This document shows positions 46,544 to 47,989 of a stretch of 64,000 nt of DNA, piece after piece; position 1 is the first letter of the stretch, and the number at the start of each line of letters is the position of its first letter. Under the pieces are notes generated by a model. It saw nothing but the letters and a program-made list of their open reading frames with translations. It made no database searches and was not told the DNA's origin. Origin of the DNA: a virus. The stretch lies in IMG/VR virus record IMGVR_UViG_3300027969_000047; one strand, 5' to 3'. The position numbers and the translations under genes were made by a program.

Positions 46544-46981
46544 TTAAAATCTGTATTTGATACCAGCAGTGATACGGCTACCGTTTTGTGTAGAAACAGA
46601 ATCTTGTCCTGATTGATATGTGTAATCAACTAGACCAGTAACATTTTTCACAATTGGCATACTTAAAGTAGCACCAGCAAGGGCGGCATAACCATCAGAA
46701 CTAGATGCAGTGTCAACATACACACCACCAAACTTCACACCAACTCCAACTGGTCCAATTTTTGTGATTTGGATAGTGTTGGTCAAACTGTAAAGGTCTG
46801 CGGTTGTGCTACGATTGAAGCCTAGTGTCAAGTCTTGTCCAAAAACTTTTTCACCTAATGTTAGACCCCAAGCATTTTCTCTGGAACTCAAATTTGTTCC
46901 ACCATTAACACCAACCTCAACTGCTTGTGCAGATGCGACTGCGACCATTAGTGATGCGATAATTGCAATTTTCTTAATCAA
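46544..46981 (-). CDS. Small outer-membrane beta-barrel protein
   Basis: Signal peptide (KK...AQA), alternating beta-strands, C-terminal GIKYRF BAM signal; TTG start with GGAG RBS. Confidence 0.75.
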   Translation of the reverse strand: MIKKIAIIASLMVAVASAQAVEVGVNGGTNLSSRENAWGLTLGEKVFGQDLTLGFNRSTTADLYSLTNTIQITKIGPVGVGVKFGGVYVDTASSSDGYAALAGATLSMPIVKNVTGLVDYTYQSGQDSVSTQNGSRITAGIKYRF

Positions 46982-46998
46982 AATAAACTCCTTGTTGT

Positions 46999-47310
46999 AA
47001 AAAAAAATGATAGCTTATTCTGTTACGAGGAAAGCTATCGAAACCCTAGGCCGTGTTTAGGCAGCCAATGCGAACTGTGAGTCGTTTGCGTTTACTTTTT
47101 TTGCTTGATTAACGGTCATCGCCTACCGTGCTGTCCACTCTGTTACTTGTTGCCCTGTCGAAACTATGCAGGCCCATCATAAAGATTGTGCTATTCCTTT
47201 TAGAAACTCTGCAATCATTTCAATAGCAGTTAATATTTTTTCTTTCATTACAATCCTTATGGTGGACCTGGGGGGATTCGCACCCCCGTCCAGAACACTT
47301 TTCTCTTTAC
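46999..47310 (-). ncRNA. ssrA: tmRNA, circularly permuted (two-piece)
   Basis: Minus-strand order: T-arm GGGGG-TGCGAAT-CCCCC plus CAGGTCCACCA (ends 47260), 84-nt intervening segment, then 5' end GGGCCTG...TTCGAC (47175) and tag ANDSQFALAA* (47089-47057), hairpin and U-tract; G3.U pair in the acceptor stem. Outer boundaries approximate. Confidence 0.9.
47177..47248 (-). CDS. Putative 23-aa amphipathic peptide inside the tmRNA intervening segment
   Basis: MKEKILTAIEMIAEFLKGIAQSL*, preceded by an AAGGA SD. Confidence 0.5.
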   Translation of the reverse strand: MKEKILTAIEMIAEFLKGIAQSL

Positions 47311-47311
47311 T

Positions 47312-47989
47312 TCATACAGCAATATCTTGATGTTTCTTCACATAGTAAAGAAGGTCATCAATGTATTTATGTTTTGTCTCTTCAAATATCTGCGGCAATG
47401 TTTCATCATTCACTGCAATAGCTACCACGATTTGTTCGATTGGTAAACCAGTAATCTCTTCGAACATAATTGCATAAGCACTACATTGCATAAAATAATT
47501 TTTGATATGGTCTTTGTCTTTCAACCTGCTTGATGTTTTAAAATCGATGACAGAAAGTTTTCCTTTCCATTCAGCAATACAATCTACACGACCAGCAACT
47601 TTCAATTTATGAGAATACAATGCTTGCTCTAAACAATAGATGTTGCCAATGTTCTTCATCAATTCAGGTTTCAGTTGAAGAAACATCTCTTTCACATTCG
47701 GCATCATCATTTGTATTTTCATATCACTCAATTCATTGAGTAAAAACTTTTCACAAACATCATGCACTGAAGTACCACGGCGAGATGCTTGGCTTGATAT
47801 CTTATTCGCCTGCTCTTCGCCTACTCTCTTACGCCATTCCATGATTGCTTTTTTATTGTAAGCAGATAGAACAGTAGTGATAGAAGAATATTTCTCACCA
47901 TTTGGTGTTGTATATTTTCTTCCAGATTCAGTTGTTACAGCTTTTAAATCAAATTCTAATTCTGGAAGTTTTACATGGTTAAAAATCAT
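47312..47989 (-). CDS. PD-(D/E)XK exonuclease (phage exonuclease/Cas4-like fold)
   Basis: Y.SITTVL; WR.RVG; RGT..H; AGRVDCIAE..G.LSVIDFKTS; YF.Q..AY. Confidence 0.85.
   Translation of the reverse strand: MIFNHVKLPELEFDLKAVTTESGRKYTTPNGEKYSSITTVLSAYNKKAIMEWRKRVGEEQANKISSQASRRGTSVHDVCEKFLLNELSDMKIQMMMPNVKEMFLQLKPELMKNIGNIYCLEQALYSHKLKVAGRVDCIAEWKGKLSVIDFKTSSRLKDKDHIKNYFMQCSAYAIMFEEITGLPIEQIVVAIAVNDETLPQIFEETKHKYIDDLLYYVKKHQDIAV

Follow-up and report, generated by a model that had tools for sequence, protein, structure and literature searches.

A probable peptide gene in the stem-closed spacer of a permuted phage tmRNA gene

Introduction

Two-piece, or permuted, transfer-messenger RNAs (tmRNAs) have already been described in aquatic phages, with 53 two-piece forms predicted among 133 unique phage tmRNA gene structures (PMC9004378). 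Published accounts treat the intervening sequence between the two pieces as absent from the mature tmRNA (PMC11915505; PMC9004378). In a 2025 tmRNA database paper, the cargo listed for intervening sequences is one tRNA-Ala gene and one repetitive element; the same paper describes homing-endonuclease genes in tmRNA introns and reports no open reading frames (ORFs) in spacers (PMC11915505). The word 'intervening' is absent from PMC9004378, and neither of these papers mentions protein-coding genes in the spacer. We found no published description of genes in two-piece tmRNA spacers. Here, we analyze the 84-nucleotide (nt) intervening segment of a permuted tmRNA gene in the IMG/VR virus record IMGVR_UViG_3300027969_000047, a stretch of 64,000 nt that we call the window. 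A preliminary description had proposed a hidden peptide gene in this segment. On comparative data that gene is very probably genuine: we put at roughly 0.8 the probability that it is an accessory gene, real but dispensable, which encodes an amphipathic-helix peptide of 23 residues and is nested in a stem-closed tmRNA spacer.

The window gene has the same order of parts as known permuted tmRNAs, with an acceptor piece ending in CCA, an intervening segment and then a coding piece, and it likewise has the G3.U70 pair and a tag that ends in LAA. The nearest analogue, a stem-closed, excised, ORF-bearing and horizontally acquired element, is the intervening sequence found in the 23S ribosomal RNA of Coxiella burnetii, which carries an S23p ORF; that element, however, is cut by RNase III, and its ORF is reported to be probably untranslated and decaying (PMC4990558). 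For the phage spacers, in contrast, excision of the tRNA type is expected, and they hold many unrelated genes whose ORFs have Shine-Dalgarno sequences (SDs) and are under purifying selection. Group I introns with homing-endonuclease genes in tmRNA T-loops also place a protein gene inside a tmRNA gene and are removed as RNA (PMC11915505). The segment studied here differs from them in lying at the permutation junction rather than in a T-loop. Moreover, an Rfam search of the window detected no intron, and tests of the 10 larger cassette ORFs revealed no endonuclease domain.

Mixed tRNA-mRNA operons offer a further parallel. Examples are E. coli thrU-tyrU-glyT-thrT-tufB and the phage T4 tRNA cluster with its small ORFs, and in such operons mRNA and tRNA-like RNAs share one precursor and are parted by RNase P and 3' processing. 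A homologue of the window peptide, in Synechococcus phage BUCT-ZZ01, lies in just such a tRNA spacer. The window ORF, unlike the genes of mixed operons, lies between the halves of one functional RNA, inside a helix needed for its assembly.

Results

The intervening segment has the layout of a small gene

The tmRNA gene lies on the minus strand of the window. It is recognized by the Rfam models beta_tmRNA (RF01850; 121.3 bits against a cut-off of 84) and tmRNA_permuted (RF04321; 137 bits against a cut-off of 47, over 47057-47321), and by ARAGORN, which places a permuted tmRNA with the tag ANDSQFALAA* at 46966-47352. The parts that concern the intervening segment are as follows.

46984..47372, minus strand: whole permuted (two-piece) tmRNA gene, extent by the beta-type model (Rfam RF01850 and RF04321; ARAGORN)
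47260..47321, minus strand: acceptor piece, with the 5' strand of the long helix, T-arm, acceptor 3' strand, discriminator and CCA (Rfam alignment; sequence)
47176..47259, minus strand: intervening segment (cassette), 84 nt, between the CCA and the mature 5' G (sequence; Rfam)
47250..47261, minus strand: 5' arm of the closing stem, CAUAAGGAUUGU, which includes the SD AAGGA at 47258-47254 (fold)
47177..47248, minus strand: peptide ORF, ATG at 47248-47246, 23 sense codons encoding MKEKILTAIEMIAEFLKGIAQSL, TGA at 47179-47177 (sequence)
47178..47189, minus strand: 3' arm of the closing stem, ACAAUCUUUAUG, which codes for the last residues and overlaps the stop codon (fold)
47169..47175, minus strand: acceptor 5' strand GGGCCUG, the mature 5' end of the coding piece (sequence; Rfam alignment)

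On the minus strand, the acceptor 3' strand CAGGTCC occupies 47270-47264 and is followed by the discriminator A47263 and the CCA at 47262-47260. The acceptor stem has 7 bp, including the alanine identity pair G3.U70, and the half that bears the CCA lies upstream of the half that holds the 5' strand. AAGGA begins 1 nt past the CCA, a 5-nt gap separates it from the ATG, and the UGA ends 1 nt (T47176) ahead of the mature 5' G47175. RNase P cleavage is an established part of two-piece tmRNA maturation, and its site here is expected 5' of G47175. When 47169-47270 is folded, it forms the acceptor helix and a 12-bp stem, CAUAAGGAUUGU with ACAAUCUUUAUG, that contains one G.U pair (-32.5 kcal/mol, z = -5.66; none of 200 shuffles equals it). 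Thus the fold reproduces the 12-bp end pairing with one G.U that the preliminary description had drawn, with the SD buried in it, and our own reading of the sequence shows that all its coordinates were correct.

By itself, the window sequence is suggestive but not decisive. Among dinucleotide shuffles, 0.5% produce an ATG, an SD and an ORF that spans 70% or more of the segment (p about 0.005); if the ATG is kept in place, 11% leave the frame open as far as the terminal TGA. As this single-sequence signal is weak, the coding case rests on comparative data.

Spacers of related tmRNA genes hold many unrelated ORFs

We collected related spacers through their conserved flanks. The exact 32-nt T-arm/CCA sequence is present in more than 120 IMG/VR contigs; another 36 came from a second scan and 9 from a metagenome scan. 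The collection has 98 distinct spacers, 25 to 491 nt long and flanked by the conserved CCA and GGGCCUG, and 85 of the 98 are found with one and the same 32-nt T-arm. About half of the spacers are ORF-less hairpins of 25-119 nt that start with UAAGCAUA, AAAGUAUA or UAAACAUA. In the other half, AAGGA, AAGGAG or GAGG lies within the first 8-12 nt, a start codon is present at nt 9-15, and the spacer is filled by an ORF; the layout seen in the window, an SD with a suitably spaced start codon and a bounded ORF, recurs in about 50 sister cassettes. The association between SD and ORF was assessed at a first count of 84 distinct spacers, where an SD stood in the first 12 nt of 34 of 40 ORF-bearing spacers versus 4 of 44 ORF-less ones (Fisher p = 6e-13). 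Stop codons also cluster. Among 49 ORF-bearing spacers, 28 stop at -1, with the conserved UGA, and 7 just before the 3' arm, while 10 have their stop 13-52 nt inside the coding piece (8 of these at +13 or +39).

The ORFs make up about 28 unrelated families of 22-151 residues. About ten of these are single-pass hydrophobic peptides, and three score above Pfam curated cut-offs (GNAT acetyltransferase, CxxCxxCC and Oxidored-like). One peptide family, MNDNLGSLAIGV..., is found in spacers of 83, 86 and 89 nt, so that its indels preserve the frame, and diverged cassette pairs have ratios of nonsynonymous to synonymous differences (pN/pS) of 0.13, 0.15 and 0.19. In cassettes of at least 29 codons, every antisense frame contains stops. 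Taken together with the Pfam matches, the pN/pS values and the SD association, these antisense stops indicate that the slot holds genuine genes on the tmRNA strand. The comparisons demonstrate, at the level of sequence, both purifying selection on the spacer ORFs and, as described below, swapping of cassettes between tmRNA genes. The preliminary description had anticipated that a real gene would show an SD and ORF kept in homologous spacers, frame-preserving indels and a ratio of nonsynonymous to synonymous substitution rates (dN/dS) below 1. We find the first in about half of the 98 variants, the second in the 83-, 86- and 89-nt spacers, and the third in the diverged pairs, the window alleles and the BUCT-ZZ01 homologue.

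Against cultured phages, neither tblastn of the larger cassette proteins L119 and L083 nor blastn of the tmRNA region gave a match. A scan of bacterial genomes for the T-arm found two contigs only, both in metagenome-assembled genomes (MAGs) of Bacteroidota, and identified no host tmRNA. These two, L172 (JBDNIA010000294.1, Crocinitomicaceae) and L173 (NZ_JBBAKG010000090.1, Haliscomenobacter), are MAG contigs of 20-23 kb with a phage-type T-arm and are probably mis-binned phage contigs; L173 has an 84-nt spacer with a 23-codon membrane-peptide ORF.

The window cassette varies like a coding sequence and is exchanged as a unit

The window spacer is present in 15 other contigs (16 loci) as six alleles. 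Both stem arms were fixed in the search for these alleles, so that the sampled variation is that of the sequence between them. There are seven variable sites, at spacer positions 34, 35, 38, 47, 50, 53 and 56, and six of the seven are third codon positions (p = 0.007). The changes comprise six synonymous substitutions and one conservative replacement, A8V (p = 0.0004 to 0.009, depending on the mutation model), and none of the six alleles has a frameshift or an internal stop. Such period-3 variation is incompatible with a constraint on RNA structure alone. Copies of the cassette on tmRNA genes with different T-arms, acceptor stems, tags (ANDSAYRLAA is one alternative) and flanking genes are 93-98% identical. 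Either the cassette has moved between backbones, or it is under tighter constraint than the tmRNA. Searches of IMG/VR for the peptide, with a profile and with degenerate codons, yielded identical peptides only.

The nearest relative that we found, G001, carries a different insert. It matches the window at 100% identity over 106 nt on the upstream side and about 210 nt on the downstream side, and between these the block running from the acceptor 3' strand through the CCA and spacer to the acceptor 5' strand is replaced. The G001 acceptor stem, UCCUCC/GGGGGAG, shows compensatory changes and keeps G3.U70, and its spacer is a 65-nt ORF-less hairpin. The breakpoints fall in the conserved T-arm and at the UAGUUUCGAC region, which points to homologous recombination between tmRNA genes as the route of the swap, with the acceptor strands moving along with the cargo. 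Since G001 has no ORF at this place, the peptide gene is accessory and dispensable.

A homologue lies in a tRNA spacer of a cultured phage

When the 23 residues were compared by tblastn with 50,697 phage records, a single match was returned, in Synechococcus phage BUCT-ZZ01 (ON615601.1, 116485-116553; 65% identity over 23 of 23 residues; E = 0.02). The matching ORF has 24 codons, encodes MKKKFLTFIEMLAEFLKGVLQAFS and is unannotated. It begins 9 nt past the CCA that closes a tRNA-like element, ends 6 nt ahead of tRNA-Leu(UAA), and lies about 400 nt downstream of the phage's own permuted tmRNA, whose spacer is ORF-less. Between the window and BUCT-ZZ01 peptides, pS is 0.70 and pN is 0.19, for a dN/dS of about 0.10. 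Their hydrophobic moments are 0.475 and 0.488, respectively, each in the top 0.4% of its own shuffles.

The tRNA-like element directly upstream of the homologue (L164:1413-1491 in ON615601.1) is likewise unannotated and has a 7-bp acceptor stem and an encoded CCA. It scores 20.2 bits with the Rfam tRNA model, below the 29-bit cut-off, and is not called by ARAGORN. A global fold of this spacer region is dominated by the neighbouring tRNAs.

The peptide is predicted to be amphipathic but not transmembrane

The preliminary description had likened the product to membrane-active amphipathic peptides. The amphipathic part of this holds, as the hydrophobic moment shows, while the membrane activity does not: the peptide has a net charge of 0, and its most hydrophobic 15-residue stretch averages 1.46 on the Kyte-Doolittle scale, compared with 2.6-3.6 in the sister cassettes of transmembrane type. 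The peptide thus has neither of the marks by which we recognized membrane peptides, a bilayer-spanning stretch or a cationic amphipathic helix. From its sequence it is predicted to be an uncharged amphipathic helix, not a transmembrane segment, and is more likely to bind a protein or a membrane interface than to span the membrane.

A conserved stem closes the spacer and takes up the SD

In 94 spacers, nucleotide i past the CCA pairs with nucleotide -(4+i) ahead of the 5' G. Over the 12 stem positions, 88% of pairs in this register are canonical versus 40-57% in shifted controls, and several positions show four to six distinct canonical pair types. The segment ends in UGAU in 82 of the 98 distinct spacers. 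This UGAU faces ACCA as an internal loop between a closing stem of 10-12 bp and the 7-bp acceptor helix, and the closing stem thus stacks on the acceptor helix. Next to the long perfect duplex of an RNase III-excised rRNA intervening sequence, the closing stem by itself is short, but the stacked acceptor helix adjoins it. Where a spacer bears a gene, the SD makes up the 5' arm of this stem, with the start codon about 12 nt past the CCA. Stem arms are weaker when they contain an SD (-7.6 versus -11.0 kcal/mol, p = 2e-10). Fold z-scores of the spacer interior are lower for ORF-bearing than for ORF-less spacers, but as they come from mononucleotide shuffles with an arbitrary trim we do not rely on them.

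The same stem-closed design is found in the cultured Pelagibacter phage HTVC008M (a pelagiphage), which has a 49-nt ORF-less spacer ending in UGAU. Across this aquatic T4-like phage clade, the collected spacers show that the stem-closed slot tolerates inserts from 25 nt to nearly 500 nt.

Variant cassettes

Several cassettes depart from the simple arrangement of an SD, a start and one ORF. Spacers of 114-115 nt in three contigs (L047:6731-6910:-, L010:52-231:- and L050:1944-2150:+) code for the Oxidored-like domain (PF09791, 44.8 bits), with allele differences mostly at third positions and with no start codon within the spacer. The sole in-frame ATG of this ORF lies in the tmRNA acceptor piece (GCUGUAUGAAGCAA); from there the ORF would read through the T-arm and CCA and end inside the coding piece. 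The largest cassettes (L017, L063, L081 and L118; 342-491 nt) have an SD, a TTG, a 4-codon mini-ORF, a TAG and an immediate ATG, an arrangement that looks like termination-reinitiation. Their proteins have a common N-terminus, MRI(N/K)E(I/L), and are otherwise unrelated; one is a GNAT acetyltransferase. In L059, L089 and L122, spacers of 215-256 nt contain a tandem pair of small ORFs with an SD apiece. The membrane peptide encoded by the second member of the L059 pair also fills the L024 spacer by itself, suggesting that cassettes are built from modules. Lastly, the ORF-less 79-nt spacer of L078 contains a T-arm-like GGTTCGAGTCC motif, possibly a tRNA fragment, which recalls the tRNA-Ala gene in one published intervening sequence (PMC11915505).

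Genomic context

Further features of the tmRNA locus are:

47312..47989, minus strand: upstream PD-(D/E)XK-type exonuclease gene (ORF list; PHROG 298 exonuclease, E = 5.5e-71)
47057..47089, minus strand: tag reading frame, ANDSQFALAA then TAA (ARAGORN; sequence)
46999..47039, minus strand: 3'-terminal hairpin of the coding piece, GAUAGCUU...AAGCUAUC, and a U-run (sequence; last helix of the Rfam beta_tmRNA model)

The stop codon of the exonuclease gene overlaps the first bases of the tmRNA gene, which makes co-transcription likely. A promoter scan found no sigma-70-type promoter directly upstream of the tmRNA; a weak TTTACT-17-GATATT candidate, noticed by eye in the upstream sequence, is below the threshold of that scan. 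The tag frame has the hydrophobic xLAA end and the stop codon that the permuted tmRNA class requires. The hairpin with its U-run is a likely terminator, although a simple terminator scan did not call it, its loop being longer than 8 nt. Surrounding genes are T4-like and include a gp32-type single-stranded DNA-binding protein, a gp59-type helicase loader, the exonuclease and an endolysin. Just past the terminator, a minus-strand gene at 46544-46981 has AAGGAG and then a TTG start and encodes 145 residues; its N-terminus looks, by eye only, like a signal peptide, and the protein has no PHROG match.

Discussion

Our data make it very probable that the spacer of the window tmRNA carries an accessory peptide gene. 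Several observations weigh against this reading. The ORF has merely 23 codons and is only weakly significant by itself, and a 12-bp stem that buries the SD should depress initiation. The gene is absent from the closest relative, G001, and hence is not essential. With the arms fixed in the allele search, the sampled variation comes from the interior of the spacer. The synonymous pattern and the conservation in BUCT-ZZ01 fit the peptide ORF and an ORF on the opposite strand, 47166-47330 (+), alike and cannot separate them. Finally, the BUCT-ZZ01 match has an E-value of only 0.02, and no obvious SD was seen at the homologue.

How might a gene in this position be expressed? Coupling of its translation to tmRNA processing is plausible, given an SD within the closing stem and a stop that reaches or passes the RNase P site. 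The unprocessed precursor, which is probably made in one transcript with the upstream exonuclease gene, would serve as the message for the peptide. After RNase P cleavage this message would end 1 nt past the stop, and 10 of the 49 cassettes would be left without one. In this model, the SD would be accessible only as long as the 3' arm has yet to be transcribed, or when a ribosome keeps the two arms apart. On termination, the ribosome would cover the RNase P site, so that translation and maturation would be mutually exclusive on any one molecule. Closure of the stem would hide the SD, and the precursor would then be processed into tmRNA.

A stronger version of this model is possible but, in our view, doubtful. 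It holds that the permutation junction is a dedicated expression slot, driven by recombination, in which translation of the cargo is mechanistically tied to tmRNA maturation. In such a slot the SD would be exposed co-transcriptionally only, and the terminating ribosome would mask the RNase P site. For the 10 of 49 cassettes with their stop in the coding piece, RNase P cleavage would yield a non-stop mRNA, and the product would be tagged by the same tmRNA from which it had come. If this is true, the amount of peptide made would reflect, or be gated by, tmRNA processing and the capacity for trans-translation in the course of infection.

It is also conceivable that translation matters while the peptide is incidental, with the ribosome opening the stem, shielding the RNase P site and thereby timing or throttling tmRNA maturation. 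This would account for an SD within the stem and a stop that abuts the cleavage site, for unrelated ORFs that occupy the same slot with the same geometry, and for stems that are weaker when an ORF is present. We nevertheless consider it unlikely. In BUCT-ZZ01, outside any tmRNA, the peptide and its amphipathic pattern are kept with a dN/dS of about 0.1, and other cassettes code for recognizable domains. Furthermore, half of the tmRNAs, including those of G001 and of the cultured HTVC008M, do without an ORF.

Less likely still is a chance, non-coding ORF in an A+T-rich processing hairpin, where AAGGA would be the purine-rich arm and TGA would belong to a UGAU leader of the RNase P site. The ends of the spacers do have such a character regardless of coding: UGAU closes 82 of the 98 whether or not they have an ORF, nearly all start (T/A)AA(G/A), and 11% of shuffles keep the frame open from a fixed ATG. 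Chance would not, however, space substitutions with period 3, tie the presence of an SD so tightly to that of an ORF, conserve the spacer above the surrounding tmRNA on divergent backbones, or place a protein-level homologue in a different RNA context.

We rejected as very improbable the idea that the real gene is the antisense plus-strand ORF at 47166..47330 (54 codons), whose third codon positions coincide with those of the peptide ORF. In its favour, most alleles leave this frame open, and every third-position change is synonymous in it too. Against it, the ORF lacks an SD and a conserved start; the start is GTG in L158 and missing from L162 and L163, and L163 has a stop two codons ahead of the conserved part. 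The ORF also crosses the tRNA-like T-arm in antisense, the neighbour genes identified between 43510 and 48850 are on the minus strand, all antisense frames are stopped in cassettes of at least 29 codons, and no Met occurs in the antisense frame of BUCT-ZZ01. Among short cassettes, 20 of 51 have an open antisense frame with common third positions, which can mislead gene callers as well as dN/dS tests.

The accessory peptide gene thus remains the reading that we prefer. To what has been published on two-piece tmRNAs, the window adds a peptide family that is not of the membrane type, a homologue in a cultured phage, occurrence of one cassette on divergent backbones, a clean swap in G001 and the antisense caveat.

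If tmRNA spacers routinely code for proteins, a single phage transcript would serve both as the precursor of a stable RNA and as a messenger. Such genes escape gene callers and tmRNA annotators alike, and the BUCT-ZZ01 homologue is indeed unannotated. The conserved RNA gene would then supply homology arms for shuffling small accessory genes between co-infecting phages. The arrangement also provides a defined, testable system for competition between the ribosome and RNase P on one RNA, and a list of about 28 small phage proteins kept by selection in a highly expressed locus.

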